In this document: positions 3,892 to 60,659 of the stretch, piece by piece
How the letters are laid out: the number at the start of each line of letters is the position of its first letter
Numbering within the stretch: the first letter of the stretch is position 1
DNA from: a virus
Strand: one strand, 5' to 3'
DNA length: 64,000 nucleotides
IMG/VR virus record: IMGVR_UViG_3300009593_000015
Location: 14,251-78,250 of that record
Program-made: the position numbers and the translations under genes
The notes under the pieces: generated by a model
The model's database searches: none
Seen by the model: the letters and a program-made list of their open reading frames with translations, nothing else
Told to the model about the DNA's origin: nothing

Positions 3892-4596
3892 ATGAGAGTC
3901 GCCCTGCTAGGAAAAAAATATAAAGACAAAATATATCACATAAAAAATTTAAGAAAAGGAGAGACCAACGTTTCTGATTTTTATAATGAGAGGTTAGGAG
4001 GAGCGCATAATTTCTTAAACAAAGAATCAGAAAACAATAATTTACTATTTGAACCTTTTTTAAGGGGCGAAAAAATAGCAACAATTATTAATGACAAAGA
4101 AGAGAGTACTAGAACCTCTTTCACCTATGAAGTGGAAGAGTCAAACATTACAGGTGATGATATAGATAAGATTAACTCTGACTATGATTGGCTGCATGTG
4201 TGCTATATTGATGACATTGGCCCTTTACAATCGCTACAAAAAGTAAAAATACCTATCAGTTTGGACTTTTGCACTTTAACTCCTCGTTCTCGATATATGA
4301 ATATTATAATGAGGTCTGAATTTGTATTTGATTCTAGGGAAAGGCTTAACCTATATGACACATTAAAGTTTAAAAATCCTTTAATTTTGCATGACCCTTG
4401 CGGGGTAGATGTTAGAATATTGGGCGAAATAAAGCACTCGGCTAAAATGGTCCCAGTCCAGGGACTTTCAGTAAACGGCGCCGGCGACATGTTTGCTAAA
4501 AATTTTATTAAAAATTTTACAAAACATGGTATACTTAAATCATCAACAATGGCCATGACGGAGACGACTAGCCAATTACTGAGGAGAAAACATTGA
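3892..4596 (+). CDS. PfkB/ribokinase-like carbohydrate kinase (divergent)
   Basis: GGAHN near the N-terminus and C-terminal VNGAGDMFA anion-hole motif; alternative TTG start at 3886. Confidence 0.6.
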   Translation: MRVALLGKKYKDKIYHIKNLRKGETNVSDFYNERLGGAHNFLNKESENNNLLFEPFLRGEKIATIINDKEESTRTSFTYEVEESNITGDDIDKINSDYDWLHVCYIDDIGPLQSLQKVKIPISLDFCTLTPRSRYMNIIMRSEFVFDSRERLNLYDTLKFKNPLILHDPCGVDVRILGEIKHSAKMVPVQGLSVNGAGDMFAKNFIKNFTKHGILKSSTMAMTETTSQLLRRKH

Positions 4597-12409: not shown

Positions 12410-15400
12410 ATGTCAGATATAGAACAAGTTTACAAATTAGAAATTAGAGACACTGATCAAGATAGTATAACTTTTACCCCAAGAATTTTTGGAGAAGTTG
12501 GTAAAGATATAGTCGCTATTAAGTTATCGTTAGGTACTCTTGTTGATATTGCTGGGGTCATCAGTCAGGGCCCCAACGCGTCTTCAGATCGCACTCAACC
12601 CTTGGACCCAAATGGGTGGTTTGATTGTACAACTGGGCAGCAAGTGTCAATTGAGCAGGCTGCAACTTTTGATTCTAAGATGCAAACTGCATTAACTAAT
12701 TTTCAATTGAAAAATCAGTTCTTAATTATCTCTTACCTGTTCAGTAAATATGCGGTACCTGGGATTGTAAATTCAGTAGGAGAGAATTATAATTCTAATT
12801 CAGAGCAGGATCAGGCGAGATACTTGGCAACGGCGTTATCCCAGCTTGAGTCGGTCGATCTATTATTTGAATCTGAAATAGGAAATTTGGGAGAAGCCAC
12901 AATTGCAGTTATGCACGGTTGGGTACCGCATACTAGCGCCGCCAATACAAATTATTACCACACAGGAGCGCTGCTGGATAGCCTCAATACCGACGCATCA
13001 ACGATTGTTGATATTGTTCCTTATGAAATTCTTCGTCTCCTTGCAGAAGGTCACATGGGTCAAACCATTGAGGACTTGCAAAACGCCGGCCTCATAAGGG
13101 AGTTCTCACACGAACCTCTATCGTATTCAAGTCGGTACCTTGAGGATTATCTTAAATCTGTCCCTGAGGCATCAAGGTGGCTCGGTTCTGATGGTATACC
13201 AAACTTCGAATATGGTTATGTAATATATAACACAATCAACGATCAGGAGAATAGTAGCCTTTATAATTCAACCATAATAACAATAAAAAACTACAAAGGA
13301 AAAAGTCTTGACGAAAGAGTCGTGTCGCAAGAGGAGAAATTAGGGAGACTAAGAAGGGTTTTTTACCCAGATCCATTTTCAACGGAAGATCCATTTTATA
13401 TAAGCCAGAATATAACTGGGCTCTATTTCGAAACAGATTTCATATTAGATTCCCAAGGTCCATTGCCAACAATGGAGGAAGAGGTGATAAAACAAATAGA
13501 GGAATCCGCTTTAGATCACATGTTAACTTTGACAAATAAGCCTCGTTTGTGGTTTTTGTCCACTGGTGATGATTCAACAATGAAGATATGGTTTGGAGAA
13601 GACGAAAAAATCATGCCATCACATAACGGGCAGTTTCCTGAATTTTCCAACCGGAGCTCCGACCAGATAAAAAGACAAATTCCTAAATTTTCAGAAATAT
13701 GGGAAAAAATAGAAGACATAAAAAAAGATTTAAACCTACTTCCAGAGACAGCTTTCGGTGCTGCTAATGACTACATCCAAGCACGACGAGAAGTGCTTTT
13801 AAATAATTTAGAATCTCTAGAAAACGATTTCGCACAAGAGCCGACACTAGAAGAAAAAAAACAAAGCTTTATTGTTTTAGGTACACAGGAATCAATTTTT
13901 GAAAATACCTCACCTGAATCAGAAGGTCTAGACCCTCCAATTGCTGCGAACTGGAGAATTCTCGAAGGCTTCGGATCAGAACCACCTCTTGTAAGATTCA
14001 TAGAATACAAGACGCCAACTTTACGTCCAGGTCAAAGATACCGAGCTATGTTAGAATTCAGCACTCGAAAATTAGATTCTATTGTTTCGGGGGTATTGCC
14101 AGTAGCAGAACAGCCAGAAGAACCAGGCCCGCCCGATGCAGATGGTGAAGACCTTTGTATTACGGGCAACACAGACGAAACCCTGAGAACTCTAGAAGAA
14201 TATAGAGTCCACGCTAGAAAAAAGAGAAGAGAAGTAGTAAGACAACTTAGGGAAGAATTCAAACAAGAGCCAGCTCTCCGAGGGTCTAACAACATTACTC
14301 GTGGGCAAATTGGTCCCTTCGATTTAAACCGAGCCCTAAACCAATTAATGGGATTTGACATTAATGGAGCATCAGACTATGAATATACGAAAGGGGTATT
14401 ATCTCGACTCGGCGACGTCGGCGCAGCGGCCATGGAAAAACTAGGCATGCTCGATACCGATATAGATTATTTTAACAGTATTGCAAATGATACGAACAAA
14501 GAATTAGCGAAAAAAGATGCTAAAGGAAAGCCTCAAAAAAACGTAATAAGAATAACCCTAGAAGAATTAGAAGAAAGAACTAACACAATAGTAAAAGATT
14601 TACAGGAGTCTAGTGAGATCGTTTCATCGGAAGGTATTGCTTTTAAAAAGGGTAGTTCGTTCAACGCATCAAAAGAATCTGGATTAGTAAAACAGTTTTA
14701 CACGCAGATGAAGGACCTAGTTCTCAACGCTGCAGCTGAGCGTTATGGTGCCGGCGTCGCGCACGCCATGTCTGTGAACCCTGATAAAGCGCTCGTGATG
14801 TTAGAGTTCCAAACGACCACTTCTAAGGGTCCAAATCCGCACATGGGCCCTGATTTTGGAAAGAAAATTATATCCTTTGGAATTGCACTACCGGAAAAAT
14901 TTAAAATAAAAGGAAAACTATGGCCCTACGCATATAGACCATCGGACAAGGTCCCCGGTGGAGCAATTATGCCAAATTTTCTCAAAAAAGGATCCGCAAC
15001 ACCAGAAAAAATAAAGCTTTATCGTGGTAAAATTAAAAACTCAAAATCACTCGGGCGCGCCCGAACAGTTAATTATATTAGTAATATATACGAAATGACA
15101 GGCCTGTTAACAGATAAGCCAAATGAGATAATATCAGTTTTTGATGATGGCAGGGGAAGTTGTAAAGATTTGGGGATTAATTTAGATAAAAAATTAGCCT
15201 CTTCTTATGTGGCTAACTTCACAACAGGAGTGCAAGTTGAACACCCACCTGGCGCCCCAAGTGGTTTTTCTTGGAAAAAGTTTGGAAAAGACAATTTTGT
15301 AGATCCTGCTAAAGACTGGGCAAAGACCAGCGCCAAAAACTGGGAAAATTCTTGGAATGATACATTCGATGAACAAGAGGCTCTACAGATGCTTGGAGAT

Positions 15401-18400
15401 ATGTGTACTTTAGAAGATTTGTATAGAGAATTTTTCGATAAACTTGACTTAGTGTCGCTTCTTTGTGACTGGCTGAAATGTATCAGGTTACCTAATTTTA
15501 ATTTAAAGCTTCCTAGTTTTTACCTACCTCCACTTCCAAGTATTCCAATACTGGGTTTGTATGGTGCCATGATTAAATTTTTTATGGAAAATTTAAAACA
15601 AATATTGATTAGAATAATCTGTACATTTGTCAGGACGATCATTGATAAGCTTGCTATACCATTTTGTGAGGAACAGCTGCGAGAATTCATGGCTGCCGGC
15701 TCGCTTAGTGGGTCTCCAATAATGGATGAGGCTCTAGCTGAAGCGCTCTTGAATACTGGCGTGCCAAAAGAAAAAACAGAACAAGCAAAGACATTTTTTG
15801 ATGACGTAGCTAGTATAACAACTGGGCAAGAATTGTGCCACCTTTTGACTGGAAAATCACTAGACGCCGCGACCATGAAAATGATACAAAGACTGTTGGA
15901 GAAAAACGACCTTCAAAATGATCTGGACACTCAAGAATCGCTGATGAATTATTTTGACCTTCTCGGAACTTTCCTTCCAGATGGTTTGTGTGAGGAGTTG
16001 CAAAATTCAACATCACTGCCGGTACCCAAGGATTGTTTAGAAATATCCGGATACCTGCACAGTATCAGAAATCGACTTCAAACTGGTGACGGCTCGCTAA
16101 GCGACGAAGAAATAGAAGAAGTGCTCCAAATGGCGAAGGAAGAGATGAACAATCGAAAAGCCGACTTGGAGGCACTTTCTGGAAACAACATTGGAAGCTT
16201 GCTTCCTGAAACTTATGCTCCTGGTAACCCAGATGCTATCATCTCGTCTTATCCTGACTTCTTAAAAGAGCGTATCGATCAAACTGCAAAAGACTCTTTT
16301 ACTGCGGCAAGAATGGATTATATTAATGCAATGGATAGTTATATTCCATCCCTCTCTATTGCAGCACCAGCGACTCCGCGCGCCGGTACGGACCGCTATA
16401 ATGATATTCAAAATTTAGAATTCGAAGCAGCAACAGCACAACTTGCTCTCTATAGTCAGGGAGTACACTCTAGTAGAGTATTCGCCCAAAGAAACACTTT
16501 ATCAAAACTGGGCCTCCCACCAGAAACAACAGCAGAAGAATTAGAGGAAATAAGAGACAAAGGTCTTATACTTCACGATTTGGCTAAATCTTTAAAATCT
16601 TGGATAACAAGAAGTCAAAACATCTCTTCTGCGTACTCGCGAGAAAACGGGGGCCCCTCTCTAGGGTATATACGCGGATCCTTGACCCGGTCTCATCGAT
16701 CCAATTTTGTCCCGGCCATGGGCCCAGACTTTCATCAACATATAGAATTCTTGGACAAAATCTTGTTAACGAGTACTGACGGTACCCGTGATGGAAACAC
16801 GATGTACACTCATGACGTCGGTAGTAGACAAGACCCAAACCCGTTCTTTGGAGATGAAAATGAAGAAATAAGAGAGAAGATAACTAATCTTGTAAATGCC
16901 TTAAGGGTACAATTCAATTCCGGCGCAGCCGCCGATCTGTACGGCGCGGGATGGGGATCATCTGCCTTGGAATGGCTAGATTTCCGCTTTAACCTCCATA
17001 GCGGCGACGCCGCACTCTTTGCGCATCAAGGGTCGGGTATTCCCGACCCTCTCGGTCAACCAGGCGCTTGGTCTCAGTTAGGAATAGAACCTTTTGATCT
17101 TACCCTCGAACAGCTTTCTTTTATTTATGTTTTAACTACGCCCAAATCTGATCCGACTTATTATTCTCAAGGCACCCGGACGGAACTTGGAAGGCACATG
17201 GAGAACACATTCGAAAACCTTTTTTATATTGAGAAAGGTTACGTGGGGGGTATTCTCGGCGAGTTCGATCCCTTCGACGAGCTTATAACTAGGTTCGCAG
17301 CCATTGAAACACTCAAAGTAGAGCTTGGTGAGAAATTATATTACGCAAATTGGAAAAACGAACACACCGGTTCAAGATATTCTGACCGAAACTCCACCGC
17401 AGTGGTCGACCGAGAGCCCGGTTGGCTTGGTCAATTTAAATGGACTGACGATGGTACCAATTGGTGGAACCCCTTCCTCGAAAACATGAGACAGTATAGG
17501 TCCATTAATCTAGAGGATACTATTGAAGTAATGAGAATGCTTTTGAAAGAGTATATAAGTAAAACAGGGTATTTTCCTGATGAAGTTGTGGACTTAGGGA
17601 AAGATATTTCATACGAAGACTTTCTCACTGAAATGCGCAATCAATGGGGTTCAACTTACTCTGCCAATTCCAATATCCTGGACCAATATTGCTGGGGCGC
17701 CGACGGTTTCTCGAAAAACACTCTTGCCGGCAAGCCGGATAAACTTTGGACAAGCGCCTGGGCAGTTTATGACAAGTTTCGAGGTAGATATTTCGATGGC
17801 GACGACAGACGCGCCCGGAATAAAGCCGATAAGCTCTGGCTCTGGAATCCAAATATCGATAGTGAAGATGGAAACTACACGGAAGAGCAGTTCGTGGACA
17901 ACTGGATCGGCGCCGCGCTGAAAACAGAAGAAATGGGTATTGAGTGGAATCATGAGTTAAGGTCTCTTAAAGTCTTGGATGCTATAATACACCTCACTGA
18001 TCCGATTCGAGATCCTTATTCTGCCGCAATACGATCTATGGATGAAATCGGCGGGGTGTCTTGGTATAATACTTTATTGCTTTTTTCTGTATTTGAGACA
18101 GAATCTGTACCTTTTGATGATGACCGTGATAAAACTCACAAAGTCTTTAAAAGAGCAAAATTACCAAACAGAAGAAGAGAAGACCAAAGAGAGGAATGGA
18201 ACCCCTACAAACCTTTTGTAAGTTACTACAGAAGGATCCCTTCAGAAGGGACAGTACACGATTATGTTCAAGGTGATAGATCCTTTCAGTATGTTTCTGT
18301 TGGTTCGTTAGATGTGCCGACGTTCATCCAAAAGGGGGCAGTATATGATAATGTTTTTAATAAAATCATAGATACGGATCCCTACCCTATAGAAACTTCC

Positions 18401-55622: not shown

Positions 55623-57623
55623 ATGGCAAAACAAAACAAGAACAACACAAGAAACCCACAAAGTGTTTTATTTAGAAGATTAACAAAACTATTATCTGGC
55701 CCTTTGACGCAATATCGTACGCAAAATAGTCACAGGCTAAAAAGAATAGATTTAGATAAGTACGCAAACAATTTCACATCAGCTTCGGGTAGGGACTTTA
55801 AGAAGACAGCTTATAATCCATACGATAATTTGCAAGCCGCATACATGACCTCCCAGCAGAGAACAGAAAGATATGTCGATTTCGACCAAATGGAATACAC
55901 ACCAGAGATTGCTTCTGCTTTAGATATTTACGCGGATGAGATGACTACGTTTTCGTCATTAAAGCCAATGCTATCGGTGGATTGTGAAAATGAGGAGATC
56001 AAGGCTATTTTGGAATCCCTATATAGCAGTGTTTTGAACATAGAACATAATATGTTTTCTTGGTGTAGAACCATGTGCAAGTATGGTGATTATTTTTTAT
56101 ATTTAGATATTGATGACACTCTTGGTGTCACGTCGGTCATAGGCTTACCTACTCGCGAAATCGAGCGCCTGGAAGGGGAAGATAAGAGTAATCCCAACTA
56201 TGTACAGTACCAGTGGAACTCAGCCGGCTTGACGTTTGAAAATTGGCAGGTGGCGCACTTTAGAGTTTTAGGGCAAGACAAATACAATCCGTATGGAACC
56301 TCGGTACTTGAACCCGCGCGCCGAATATGGCGCCAGCTGACTCTCCTAGAAGATGCTATGATGGCCTACCGCATTGTAAGATCTCCTGAGCGTAGAGCTT
56401 TTTATATTGATGTGGGAAACATCCCACCTCAAGACGTTGAGCAATATATGCAAAAAGTAATGACCACCATGAAAAGGAATCAAGTTGTTGATTCTGAAAC
56501 AGGAAGAGTCGACTTAAGATACAATCCCTTGTCAATAGAAGAAGACTATTTTATCCCTGTTAGAGGTCAGAGTAATACAAAAATAGAAGCCGTCTCCGGT
56601 GGAAAATATACAGGAGACATAGAAGACGTAAAATATCTGAGAGATAAATTGTTCTCGGCATTGAAAATTCCAGCAGCTTACATATCTTCAGACTCTGAAA
56701 AGGGAGCATCCGAGGATACAACAACTTTGGCTCAGAAAGATATAAGATTCTCAAGAACAATTCAGCGTTTGCAGAGATCTATGTTGAGCGAGATAGAGAA
56801 AATAGGAATAGTTCACCTTTACACGTTAGGGTACAGGGACGAAGATCTGGTCTCTTTCAGATGTACATTAAATAATCCATCAAAAATTTCTGAAATGCAG
56901 GAGCTTGAATACTGGAAAACTAAGTTTGATATCGTCGGCGCCGCCACTGAAGGGTTTTTCTCGAAACAGTGGTTAGCAAAAAAACTTTTCGGAATGTCAG
57001 ACGACGAGTTCATTCGCAACCGAAGAGAAATGTTTTATGATAAACGCTACGAAGCAGCACTTGAAACGGCTGGCGAGGCCGAACAAGCAGCTCAGACAGC
57101 TAATCTCAACGCTGGGCCAGACGCGCTCCCTGGAGGAGACATGGGAGAGCCCGGAGGGATGGGTACCGTTGGACCAGAGCCGGAACTTGGGGCCCCAGGA
57201 GATGACATGGGCGGAGATCTCGGCGGCGGTGATGCCGACGCCCCTGCAGGGCCCGAAGAAGGCGACCTCCTAGCGGCACCTCCAGGAAAGAGAGAAGATT
57301 CTGAAGGTAGAACCACTACTGAAAAGTCTCATGGATGGTATGAACCTAGGCACTTATTTCCAGGAGGTGATAGAAGAAAATCTTCCGGACCGCGGAAAAA
57401 AAATATGAACCGCGCTGCCAGCCCAGAAACCGGTACGACTAGAAAGCTATATCCAGGATATAGCGAACTTACTGGTTTGGCAAAGGGAACGAGTGTTTAT
57501 GAGAATCAAAAGACTAATTATAAAGTAGAAGAACATAAAATTCTAAAAGAACAAAAAGAGCTTGACGCTCTTTTCAAGAGCCTTAAGGCAAGGAAAGAAA
57601 AAGATGAGACTGAAGCACAATAA
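55623..57623 (+). CDS. portal protein (T4 gp20-like)
   Basis: EIASALDIYADE, QLTLLEDAMMAYRIVRSPERRAFYIDVGN, EDYFIPVR and DVKYLRDKLFSALKIP. Confidence 0.93.
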   Translation: MAKQNKNNTRNPQSVLFRRLTKLLSGPLTQYRTQNSHRLKRIDLDKYANNFTSASGRDFKKTAYNPYDNLQAAYMTSQQRTERYVDFDQMEYTPEIASALDIYADEMTTFSSLKPMLSVDCENEEIKAILESLYSSVLNIEHNMFSWCRTMCKYGDYFLYLDIDDTLGVTSVIGLPTREIERLEGEDKSNPNYVQYQWNSAGLTFENWQVAHFRVLGQDKYNPYGTSVLEPARRIWRQLTLLEDAMMAYRIVRSPERRAFYIDVGNIPPQDVEQYMQKVMTTMKRNQVVDSETGRVDLRYNPLSIEEDYFIPVRGQSNTKIEAVSGGKYTGDIEDVKYLRDKLFSALKIPAAYISSDSEKGASEDTTTLAQKDIRFSRTIQRLQRSMLSEIEKIGIVHLYTLGYRDEDLVSFRCTLNNPSKISEMQELEYWKTKFDIVGAATEGFFSKQWLAKKLFGMSDDEFIRNRREMFYDKRYEAALETAGEAEQAAQTANLNAGPDALPGGDMGEPGGMGTVGPEPELGAPGDDMGGDLGGGDADAPAGPEEGDLLAAPPGKREDSEGRTTTEKSHGWYEPRHLFPGGDRRKSSGPRKKNMNRAASPETGTTRKLYPGYSELTGLAKGTSVYENQKTNYKVEEHKILKEQKELDALFKSLKARKEKDETEAQ

Positions 57624-58969: not shown

Positions 58970-59292
58970 TGTCGTTTATATGGTTTTGCCTTATTTCTTT
59001 TGGCTTAACACAAATCCTAGTTTATGGAAAAATTTTTGAACCAATAAGACCAAAAGAGGGCTGGTTTGGGCAATTATTCAGTTGTCCAATGTGTACTGGT
59101 TTTTGGACAGGTTTATTTTTGTGGTTCGTAAAGGATTATACACAACTATTTATTTTTGACGATTCTTTTGTGACAGCGTTCTTATTAGGTTGCGCTTCAT
59201 CAGCAGCGGCCTATTTAGGAAGTATGTTTATAGGGGATGACGGAATTAAAATGGAGAAAATAATTTATCACTACAATGTTAGCGATGAATGA
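58969..59292 (+). CDS. DUF1360-like membrane protein with CxxC
   Basis: three hydrophobic segments and LFSCPMCTGFW. Confidence 0.6.
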   Translation: MSFIWFCLISFGLTQILVYGKIFEPIRPKEGWFGQLFSCPMCTGFWTGLFLWFVKDYTQLFIFDDSFVTAFLLGCASSAAAYLGSMFIGDDGIKMEKIIYHYNVSDE

Positions 59293-59305
59293 GAGGGAAA
59301 ATAAA

Positions 59306-59374
59306 ATGGAAAACTTAGTTTGTAGAAAAAATTGGGCCCTACAACCTGTCCGTCGTTGTTGTTCGGGTAAGTAG
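59306..59374 (+). CDS. 22-aa Cys-rich small ORF MENLVCRKNWALQPVRRCCSGK, in frame with the prohead protease
   Basis: GAGAGGG RBS at 59291-59297, ATG 59306, TAG 59372-59374; not in the supplied ORF track. Confidence 0.55.
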   Translation: MENLVCRKNWALQPVRRCCSGK

Positions 59375-59379
59375 CTGAC

Positions 59380-59394
59380 GCGGGTGGCCCCCGC
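59380..59394 (+). other. GC hairpin GCGGG-TGGCC-CCCGC, 5 nt after the amber stop
   Basis: perfect 5-bp GC stem in AT-rich DNA; no U-tract, so not a terminator. Confidence 0.55.
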
Positions 59395-59407
59395 ACTGAG
59401 GAAGAGA

Positions 59408-60013
59408 ATGAAATTATTGAGAGAATATTATGAATTGTGCGACGGAGGAATCTGTCAGGATCTTTTGACAGAAGAGGAAAAGCGCAGGGTAGCAAACGGA
59501 GCTTGCATCCTTTCAGGTGTCATGCAGATGTCCGAAACCCAAAATGGCAACGGCCGTATCTATCCGCATGCAATTCTTGAGAGAGAGGTGGGAAACTATC
59601 TCAAAATGGTAAAAGAACGGCGCGCTCTCGGAGAGCTCGACCATCCAGATACGAGTGTGATAAATTTATCAAACGCCTCACATTTAGTTACAGATATATG
59701 GATGGATGGGCAAAAATGTATGGGGAAGATAGAGGTCCTTAACACACCAACTGGTAACGTACTCAAAGAATTGGTAAACGCCGGCGTGAAACTTGGAATA
59801 TCTTCTAGAGGAATGGGATCGGTTACAGAAAGTAATGGAGTAACAATGGTGGAGGACGACTTTCAGTTGATTTGTTTTGATATGGTTTCGGATCCATCTA
59901 CCCCAGGAGCATTCATGATGTCTGAGGCTAAAGAACGATCCAACATCTTCACAAAAAAAGATATGATTGATAGAAGTATAAATAATTTTCTATATAAGTT
60001 TGGAGAAAAATGA
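59408..60013 (+). CDS. prohead core protein protease (T4 gp21-like)
   Basis: NGNGRIYP, ALGELDHP, SH, TPTG, GISSRGMGS and DMVSDPSTPGA; GAGG RBS. Confidence 0.92.
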   Translation: MKLLREYYELCDGGICQDLLTEEEKRRVANGACILSGVMQMSETQNGNGRIYPHAILEREVGNYLKMVKERRALGELDHPDTSVINLSNASHLVTDIWMDGQKCMGKIEVLNTPTGNVLKELVNAGVKLGISSRGMGSVTESNGVTMVEDDFQLICFDMVSDPSTPGAFMMSEAKERSNIFTKKDMIDRSINNFLYKFGEK

Positions 60014-60411
60014 AAAAATCAGAACTGAAAAGCATTATTAAAGAGTGTGTAAAGGAAGTGCTTTTTGAAGAAGGTGTTCTTTCTAATTTGGTAGCAGAGA
60101 TAGCCTTTGGGGTAACAAAAGCTCAAGGGCTCATCGCGGAATCCAAAGTATCCGCTCCGGAAGATACAAGTGCTGATCGTCGTCTTCGTGAAAGAAATCA
60201 GAAAAAGAAGCTTCTAGAAACGAAGAAAAAAATGATAGATGCCATTGGTGGAGATAGAATGAGCGGTGTCTTTGAAGGAACAAAGCCTTTGCCAAACTCT
60301 GGCGGCTCCAACCCTCATTCTCCAATGGCAGGCCTCGCGCCCGGTGATGCCGGCGTCGATATCTCCGGTTTATTTAAGTTATCCGGCCAAAAATGGCAAA
60401 ATTTGAAATAA
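60010..60411 (+). CDS. hypothetical head protein with MKKSELKSIIKECVKE N-terminus
   Basis: shared N-terminal motif; ATGA overlap with the protease. Confidence 0.6.
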   Translation: MKKSELKSIIKECVKEVLFEEGVLSNLVAEIAFGVTKAQGLIAESKVSAPEDTSADRRLRERNQKKKLLETKKKMIDAIGGDRMSGVFEGTKPLPNSGGSNPHSPMAGLAPGDAGVDISGLFKLSGQKWQNLK

Positions 60412-60422
60412 AGGAAAGAAAA

Positions 60423-60659
60423 ATGGGTAGAAGAACACCAGTACATGTAGAAGTTGTGATTCATGATCAATCACAAGTAGAAAGAATGATAAAGAAATTT
60501 ACCAGAAAATGTAAGAAATCTGGATTATTTGACGAATTGAAGAGGCGCCGCCATCATGTCAAGAAGTCAGTTAAGTTAAAAGAGAAACGCGCTCGAAAGA
60601 AGCGCCTTTCTCAAAAGTCCACGCAGGACTATAAAGACAAGTTTAATAAGATTAATTAG
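60423..60659 (+). CDS. rpsU: phage-encoded 30S ribosomal protein bS21
   Basis: VEV......VERMIKKFTRKCKKSGLFDELKRRRHHVKKS aligns by eye with bS21 (ALRRFKR.CEKAG...E.R.RE.YEKP); located between protease and MCP. Confidence 0.8.
   Translation: MGRRTPVHVEVVIHDQSQVERMIKKFTRKCKKSGLFDELKRRRHHVKKSVKLKEKRARKKRLSQKSTQDYKDKFNKIN

Follow-up and report, generated by a model that had tools for sequence, protein, structure and literature searches.

An unannotated, conserved micro-gene and an intercistronic hairpin precede the prohead protease gene in uncultured marine T4-like phages

The window analyzed here, a stretch of 64,000 nucleotides (nt) covering positions 14,251 to 78,250 of the IMG/VR virus record IMGVR_UViG_3300009593_000015, is a portion of a 78-kb record and carries a head-gene block of the T4 type. 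Between the gene of a small membrane protein of the DUF1360 family and the gene of the prohead core protease lies a frame of 22 codons (59306-59374), which comparison with related loci identifies as a genuine, strongly conserved and unannotated protein-coding micro-gene. Its product is a basic peptide of 16-22 amino acids (aa) encoded in the head block of a large clade of uncultured marine T4-like phages, and its stop codon is followed at a fixed distance by a GC-rich hairpin. The locus is probably best understood as the gene of a trans-acting micro-protein followed by an intercistronic hairpin of the terminator type; recoding is not involved, and the frame that links the micro-gene to the protease gene is incidental.

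Results

A conserved micro-gene lies upstream of the protease gene

The ATG at 59306 opens an open reading frame (ORF) of 22 aa, MENLVCRKNWALQPVRRCCSGK, which ends in a TAG at 59372-59374 with C as the next base. A preliminary description of the window had reported this ORF with its own Shine-Dalgarno (SD) site, a hairpin at 59380-59394 that begins 5 nt after the TAG and precedes the SD of the protease gene, and a frame that stays open (LTRVAPALRKR) from the TAG to the protease ATG at 59408. All of these elements are present in the sequence, and the distance between the two start codons (59408 - 59306 = 102) is a multiple of three. The nine N-terminal residues of the peptide are variable, and the conserved core, W-A-L-Q-P-V-R-R-C-C-S-G-K, occupies 59333-59371. 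An alternative ATG at 59276 gives a longer ORF of 32 aa; since the relatives carry about eight variable residues ahead of the core, 59306 is indicated as the start.

About 120 related loci were gathered from IMG/VR, 80 of them via the protease and 37 via the peptide motif. The micro-ORF was present in every relative that had sufficient 5' sequence, mostly with a length of 16-22 codons, and a strong SD, of the AGGAG or AAGGAG type at the equivalent place, preceded the ATG in all relatives. Across the relatives, the C-terminal core reads W-x-L/I-Q/R-P-V-R/A-R/N/H-C-C-x-G-S/K/A; one clade has C-K-x-G-C instead, keeping the two cysteines as C-x3-C. When the 82 distinct 39-nt cores were examined, the entropy at the third codon position of the 13-codon core was 1.49, compared to 0.63 and 0.56 at the other two. 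The ratio of nonsynonymous to synonymous differences (pN/pS) was 0.28, with a pS of 0.82 that is near saturation, compared to 1.67 and 1.17 in the other two frames. The core remained about 70-90% identical among phages whose proteases fall to 49-58% identity. It was equally conserved in lineages without the hairpin, in about seven lineages that have lost the stop and gained 8-18 residues, and in loci where a core-like gene, instead of the protease gene, comes next.

In the locus L153 (reverse strand), the micro-gene is duplicated in tandem (about 4040-4260, counted on the reversed locus). TGA replaces the second Cys codon in the first copy, whose hairpin is weak; after the intact second copy come a GC hairpin and then the protease gene.

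The micro-gene was found only in uncultured phages and is missed by gene callers

The peptide motif gave at least 599 matches in IMG/VR compared to 125 in 596 Gb of prokaryote genomes, the latter being essentially chance. Two of the 125 passed the filter, one on an actinobacterial contig of 64% GC and one beside a sortase gene in a metagenome-assembled genome (MAG) of the Saccharibacteria, and both were treated as chance or unrelated matches. On the MAG contig (L202, 446-560), the sortase-like gene has 3' of it a 35-codon frame containing W-M-L-Q-P-V-R-R-C-C-N-G, with a strong terminator next; since the pattern hits numbered 125 in 596 Gb, this frame is probably a chance match.

Neither the 22-aa nor the 32-aa peptide matched a family in Pfam or PHROGs, and a tblastn search of 50,697 cultured-phage records with three peptide variants and the DUF1360 protein returned no true match. 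The nearest cultured gp21 genes, those of Flavobacterium phage immuto and cyanophage P-TIM40, had neither the peptide nor the Cys-pair N-terminus of the protease described below. Querying 5.8 billion protein clusters with a 41-aa stop-loss form retrieved only two called proteins, both of them stop-loss forms that overrun the protease start out of frame, indicating that gene callers miss the micro-gene. The sequencing runs listed as holding the sequence were marine DNA metagenome contigs only, with no RNA runs among them, and an Rfam scan of 59000-59700 with E values up to 10 gave only noise.

A covarying hairpin follows the micro-gene at a fixed distance

The stem begins 5 nt after the TAG and the window copy folds with an energy of -9.2 kcal/mol. 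As a bare pattern, such a hairpin is within chance (0.32 expected per window; at least one in 26 of 100 shuffles), and the case for its reality comes from conservation and covariation in the relatives. An alignment of 56 distinct sequences, running from the Cys codons to past the hairpin, was ungapped, with an invariable 5 nt between stop and stem. Pairing was complete (100% of these sequences) at four of the five core pairs, and double, compensatory changes (G-C to C-G, A-U or U-A) were found in four of the five. The observed covariation was equaled in none of 500 shuffles, and in a control in which the partner was slid by 1-3 columns, pairing dropped from 85% to 40-55%. Peptide conservation (pN/pS 0.28) and stem covariation, two of the comparisons that the preliminary description had proposed, were thus both borne out. 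The larger fold of the 136-nt region was no better than shuffles (z = +1.8).

In the sister clade whose core reads W-M-L-Q-P-V-R-R-C-C-S-G-S (hereafter the S-G-S clade), the hairpin has an 8-bp stem, a 3-nt loop and an energy of -12.5 to -15.6 kcal/mol and is followed by 6-9 U, a form that was folded in L085, L088, L095, and L099 and that is a canonical intrinsic terminator. T-rich tails remain in five members of the window's own clade (L043, L017, L020, L021, and L022). Each of five near-complete relatives (144-193 kb) has exactly one copy of the motif, which is therefore a site-specific element rather than the general terminator of these phages. In L018, the hairpin still stands 3' of the peptide although the next gene is not the protease gene; it therefore belongs to the 3' end of the micro-gene and not to the start of the protease gene. 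A further 26 distinct contexts have no hairpin; most of them have just CT between the stop and the ATG of the next gene, an arrangement of tight translational coupling.

Several minor observations concern these elements. The hairpin at 59380-59394 is the sole intergenic all-GC 5-bp hairpin of the window; eight others, all intragenic, were found at 2137, 16921-17013, 36189, 38148, 39698, and 56318. The total of nine compares to about 1.3 in block shuffles, an excess that may reflect GC-rich coding patches. In the hairpin-less clade, 2 nt separate the micro-gene stop from the following ATG (TAG/TAA-CT-ATG), with the K-G-S codons AAGGGA also serving as the SD of the next gene. In L034, L054, L061, L063, L068, and their relatives, which belong to this clade, the DUF1360 ORF extends out of frame across most of the micro-gene.

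Stop codon usage varies among relatives

The preliminary description had also proposed that the identity of the stop be compared among relatives, and it was not conserved: the 86 distinct contexts comprised 40 with TAG, 19 with TGA, 16 with TAA, and 11 with a sense codon at the stop position. TAG is the prevailing stop of the window's clade and TGA that of the S-G-S clade. Long ORFs of the window and its relatives gave a background usage of 58% TAA, 27% TGA, and 15% TAG. The base 3' of the micro-gene stop was C, A, or T. The sense codons of the approximately seven stop-loss lineages were CAA, CAG, AAG, TGG, GGT, AAA, AGA, AGT, and TGT, and these lineages read on through the hairpin, giving ...RVAPAL....

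Proposed role of the peptide and the hairpin

Most likely, the peptide is a small protein with a trans-acting role. The flanking genes offer candidate partners. In the alignment of relatives, residues C39, P40, and C42 of the DUF1360 protein are invariant (C-P-x-C). The N-terminus of the protease, MKLLREYYELCDGGICQDLLTE in the window (59408-59475), is specific to the clade, with the consensus MKLLREYYELC-x-G-G-x-C-QDLLTE (MKLLREYYELC-DGG-IC-QDLLTE in the window) and with C11 and C16 invariant; this Cys-pair N-terminus was absent from the cyanophage and Flavobacterium-phage gp21 proteins that were compared. Its L-T-E motif fits the gp21 cleavage rule (L/I-x-E). The T4 capsid-targeting sequence ends in an L-x-E cleavage motif, and the protease N-terminus resembles such a sequence, suggesting a removable propeptide. 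Three clade-specific features therefore occur together, namely the two cysteines of the peptide, the C-P-x-C of the DUF1360 protein, and the Cys pair of the protease, and they were absent from the cultured phages searched.

We propose that, while proheads assemble or mature, the peptide would partner, through its two cysteines, with the DUF1360 protein and/or the N-terminal Cys pair of the protease. T4 heads have a membrane-bound prohead initiation step, and in the reading that we favor, a thiol or metal link among the three parts might form at that step. A complex prediction with the protease, the DUF1360 protein, the peptide, and Zn scored 0.01 and gave no verdict. The hairpin, homologous in position and in sequence to the canonical intrinsic terminators of the sister lineages, is probably derived from, or equivalent to, such a terminator. 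In the sister lineages, the form with 8 bp and a U-run would partly terminate or attenuate transcription ahead of the protease and core genes. In the lineage of the window, the spacer has shrunk to the 33-nt minimum that accommodates the hairpin and the SD, with loss of the U-run, and the hairpin would probably be no more than a weak pause, an mRNA-stabilizing barrier, or a modulator of coupling.

Several observations count against the proposed explanation. The tail of the window hairpin, ACUGAGGAAG, has no U-run, and the hairpin was not called terminator-like. A plain small gene followed by a terminator leaves three things unaccounted for: within the window's clade, the GCGGG/CCCGC stem sequence is conserved beyond structural need, at one copy per genome; the 5-nt spacing between stop and stem never varies; and TAA is under-represented at the micro-gene stop (16 of 75, compared to about 58% in the background). 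Spacers that keep the micro-gene in frame with the protease gene make up 25 of the 40 distinct arrangements that have a stop, a hairpin, and the protease gene directly 3', which is above the one third expected. The translation of the micro-gene and its partner contacts are, moreover, predictions from sequence comparison. Taken together, the deficit of TAA, the fixed 5-nt spacing, and the conserved stem sequence hint at an interplay of the terminating ribosome with the hairpin, and some regulatory role for the hairpin is possible.

Leader-peptide and combined alternatives

Of the interpretation given in the preliminary description, the peptide gene and the hairpin stand as real and conserved, the recoding and selenopeptide options are not supported, and the option of a leader peptide controlling protease dosage or timing is weakened. 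Such a cis-acting leader or arrest peptide would slow termination through its 13 C-terminal residues in the ribosome tunnel, at a weak stop (TAG or TGA); the paused ribosome would cover the 5' arm of the hairpin and gate transcription or translation of the next gene, and this gating would set the dosage or timing of the protease. We consider this sequence of events, taken as a whole, unlikely. Conservation is confined to the C-terminal part, the N-terminus varying in length and sequence, and together with the invariant distance from stop to stem in the 56 distinct sequences this fits a leader. By the established geometry of the ribosome footprint, when the stop occupies the A site, the 5-nt distance brings the base of the stem to the mRNA entrance. 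The hairpin is a true terminator in the sister lineages, the gap to the next gene is too short for a promoter, and TAA, the strongest stop, is the one that is under-represented. However, the core stays intact in the 11 of 86 contexts where a sense codon replaces the stop, so the stop is not required as it is in peptides of the TnaC type, and the core is equally conserved without the hairpin. About 2 nt separate the stop from the next ATG in the 26 hairpin-less contexts, and a ribosome stalled there would obstruct downstream expression instead of promoting it. No alternative antiterminator pairing was present in the fold, a tandem duplicate exists, and the window hairpin has no U-run.

A combination of cis and trans functions was also considered, in which the micro-peptide and the fixed-distance hairpin would together be a single device that serves head maturation by both regulation and assembly. 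A ribosome at the slow TAG or TGA stop would control folding of the hairpin and hence the amount of protease or core mRNA. The two-Cys peptide, once released, would bind via a metal or disulfide to the CPxC of the DUF1360 protein or to the Cys pair in the propeptide of the protease, and the bound peptide would be a cofactor or timer of prohead maturation, comparable to the 11-mer pVIc of adenovirus (GVQSLKRRRCF), which activates the adenoviral protease through a disulfide. That all of these parts hold jointly appears quite improbable.

Evidence against recoding into the protease gene

The preliminary description had placed first a programmed readthrough of the TAG into an extended protease. 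More broadly, recoding at the TAG by readthrough, by a gene-60-like bypass, or by a restart at CTG or ATG would yield a minor, N-terminally extended Cys-Cys isoform of the protease in this phage and its close relatives. The resemblance to a recoding site is considerable: the frame of the window is open from the TAG into the protease gene, as it is in 19 of the 40 arrangements; a structured RNA begins 5 nt past the stop in 56 of 56 sequences, at a distance that recoding stimulators typically have; in-frame spacers exceed expectation; TAG is preferred in the window's clade; and the window contains an AAG pair for take-off and landing. Even so, we judge recoding very unlikely, because the frame link, the stop, and its 3' context are not conserved and loss of the stop never produced a fusion.

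Conservation of the frame was another of the comparisons proposed: of the 40 arrangements, 15 have lost the frame link, and 6 more keep the frame but run into a stop. One inherited 33-nt spacer (12 cases) accounts for most of the in-frame excess. A spacer of 33 nt is about the shortest that can hold the 5 nt, the 15-nt hairpin, the SD, and the distance from SD to ATG, and the in-frame relation is thus a by-product. The frame is open because the SD TGAGG has a fixed phase relative to the protease ATG, and the apparent residues A-L/V-R of the extension are the end of the hairpin and the SD. No fusion to the protease occurs in any of the approximately seven stop-loss lineages, whose extended ORFs either terminate ahead of the protease start or run over it in another frame. 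Since about half of the stop-bearing arrangements have an open frame in phase with the protease gene, this lack of fusions suggests that constitutive fusion is selected against. Nor did the protein database search find a longer fused form, which is weak evidence. Neither the base after the stop (C, A, or T) nor the stop itself is constant, other clades having TGA or TAA. A different gene separates the micro-gene from the protease gene in about 10 relatives, of which L018 keeps the hairpin. No suppressor tRNA, and no phage-encoded amber suppressor, was found among the 1-10 tRNAs of each of three complete relatives, and the window has no tRNA.

Two variants of this explanation were rejected separately. 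A bypass of the gene-60 type lacks a landing codon in 21 of the 40 arrangements, and only 5 were productive, all with Lys codons within an A-rich spacer. A restart at an NTG after the stop was rejected because only the window's clade has a potential start codon there; the codon found in other clades is CTC, CAC, AAC, or ATC.

The last option of the preliminary description, that the peptide represents the Cys version of a family of selenopeptides, with the hairpin as an element resembling a selenocysteine insertion sequence (SECIS), took up the two adjacent Cys codons shortly ahead of a GC hairpin and could cite the many relatives whose ORF ends in TGA directly before the hairpin, but its probability is vanishingly small: two IMG/VR scans for TGA at either Cys position gave 79 matches, nearly all unrelated, with a single true member, L153, whose TGA copy has an intact second copy beside it and is therefore a decaying duplicate; the TGA before the hairpin in the S-G-S clade is an ordinary stop after a complete core, with a U-run terminator next; the loop lies merely about 10 nt after the stop; and no tRNA for selenocysteine was found in the phage tRNA sets of the three complete relatives.

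Discussion

Comparison with known systems

A global microbial catalog of small open reading frames (smORFs) describes unannotated small-protein genes of microbes and phages (PMC11364881). The micro-gene resembles these smORFs in having fewer than 30 codons, its own SD, and a signature of purifying selection, in being missed by gene callers, and in lacking a Pfam or PHROG family. It differs in being, at 16-22 aa, far shorter than most that are catalogued, and in being tied to one position of a phage head module and to a fixed-distance hairpin.

The hairpin resembles intrinsic terminators and intercistronic hairpins in its GC-rich stem right after the stop, in the 8 bp and U-run of the sister lineages, and in its covarying stems. 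Unlike intrinsic terminators, the window copy has 5 bp and no U-run, and the stem sequence is unusually conserved, occurring once per genome at a fixed distance from the stop.

Termination-arrest and attenuation leader peptides are exemplified by TnaC of the tnaCAB operon and by the pyrBI leader. As in these, a short ORF is conserved only C-terminally and its stop adjoins a transcription-termination signal; as in TnaC, a Trp stands 12 residues ahead of the last residue. In contrast, the stop of the micro-gene is dispensable, its peptide is conserved also where the hairpin is missing, and neither an effector nor an antiterminator is evident. Stimulated readthrough is known from Qbeta A1 and from gag-pol of the murine leukemia virus (MuLV), and fdhF carries a bacterial SECIS. 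The locus shares with these a stop followed at a short distance by a stable RNA and, in the window, an open frame; however, the downstream frame and the identity and context of the stop are not conserved, no selection acts on the extension, and no UGA occurs at the Cys columns.

KdpF, CydX, and AcrZ are small partners of membrane complexes. To these, as to pVIc, the present system is comparable by analogy only, as a tiny basic Cys peptide encoded beside a CPxC membrane protein and a maturation protease with a Cys pair. The gp21-type protease is a serine protease unrelated to adenain, the target of pVIc, and any partnering in the phage is putative.

With the micro-gene, the well-studied head-assembly block of T4-type phages gains a gene that is undescribed, very short, and conserved to a very high degree. 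The clade-specific trio formed by the DUF1360 CPxC membrane protein, the two-Cys micro-peptide, and the protease with its N-terminal Cys pair could point to a membrane-linked or thiol- or metal-dependent step in prohead initiation or maturation. The locus is also a worked negative example, in which a stop, a hairpin, and an open frame resemble recoding yet are the by-product of a minimal intergenic spacer.

Gene order around the micro-gene

The features of the locus are collected in Table 1.

Table 1 Features of the micro-gene locus and of the surrounding head block (window positions)
Feature	Position	Strand	Basis or remark
Portal gp20	55623-57623		Head block; followed by two unknown genes before the DUF1360 gene
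DUF1360-family small membrane protein, 107 aa	58969-59292	+	Pfam PF07098, E 7.6e-6
SD-like AGAGGG	59292-59297	+	8 nt 5' of the micro-gene ATG; read from sequence
Micro-gene, 22 codons and TAG	59306-59374	+	Sequence, conservation, coding signature
Micro-gene stop TAG	59372-59374	+	Sequence
Stem-loop GCGGG-UGGCC-CCCGC, 5 bp, no U-run	59380-59394	+	Sequence, -9.2 kcal/mol
Protease SD GAGGA	59398-59402	+	Sequence; TGAGGA or AGAGG at this site in relatives
Prohead core serine protease, T4 gp21 type, 201 aa	59408-60013	+	Pfam PF03420, E 4.5e-30
Small core-like protein gene	60010-60411		3' of the protease gene
Phage ribosomal protein bS21	60393-60659		Pfam PF01165, E 1e-11
gp23 capsid protein gene	from 62592		Preceded by further head genes

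The DUF1360 ORF of the window ends in a TGA at 59290-59292. The DUF1360 gene was the 5' neighbor of the micro-gene in nearly all loci examined, and in the relatives its 3' end often overlaps the micro-gene out of frame. The 3' neighbor was the protease gene in most loci; in about 10 relatives, the micro-gene is followed by a core-like gene whose product begins MK-I-T-x-x-E-L-K-x-I-I-x-E-E, and the protease gene lies 300-800 nt beyond.

The core-like gene of the window (60010-60411, 3' of the protease gene) encodes a member of a small acidic protein family that starts MK-x-x-x-x-E-L-K-x-I-I-x-E-E. The same family was found between the micro-gene and the protease gene in the relatives L025, L044, L047, L048, L051, and L063; these acidic proteins are probably prohead core or internal proteins with a targeting sequence. 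The bS21 gene sits within the head module, with the protease and core genes on one side and the capsid gene on the other. In L011-L013, a canonical terminator, CCCGTGCC...GGCACGGGCTTTTT, precedes the micro-gene at about 2340-2390, replacing the direct DUF1360 stop, and the micro-gene and the protease gene therefore begin a new unit there.

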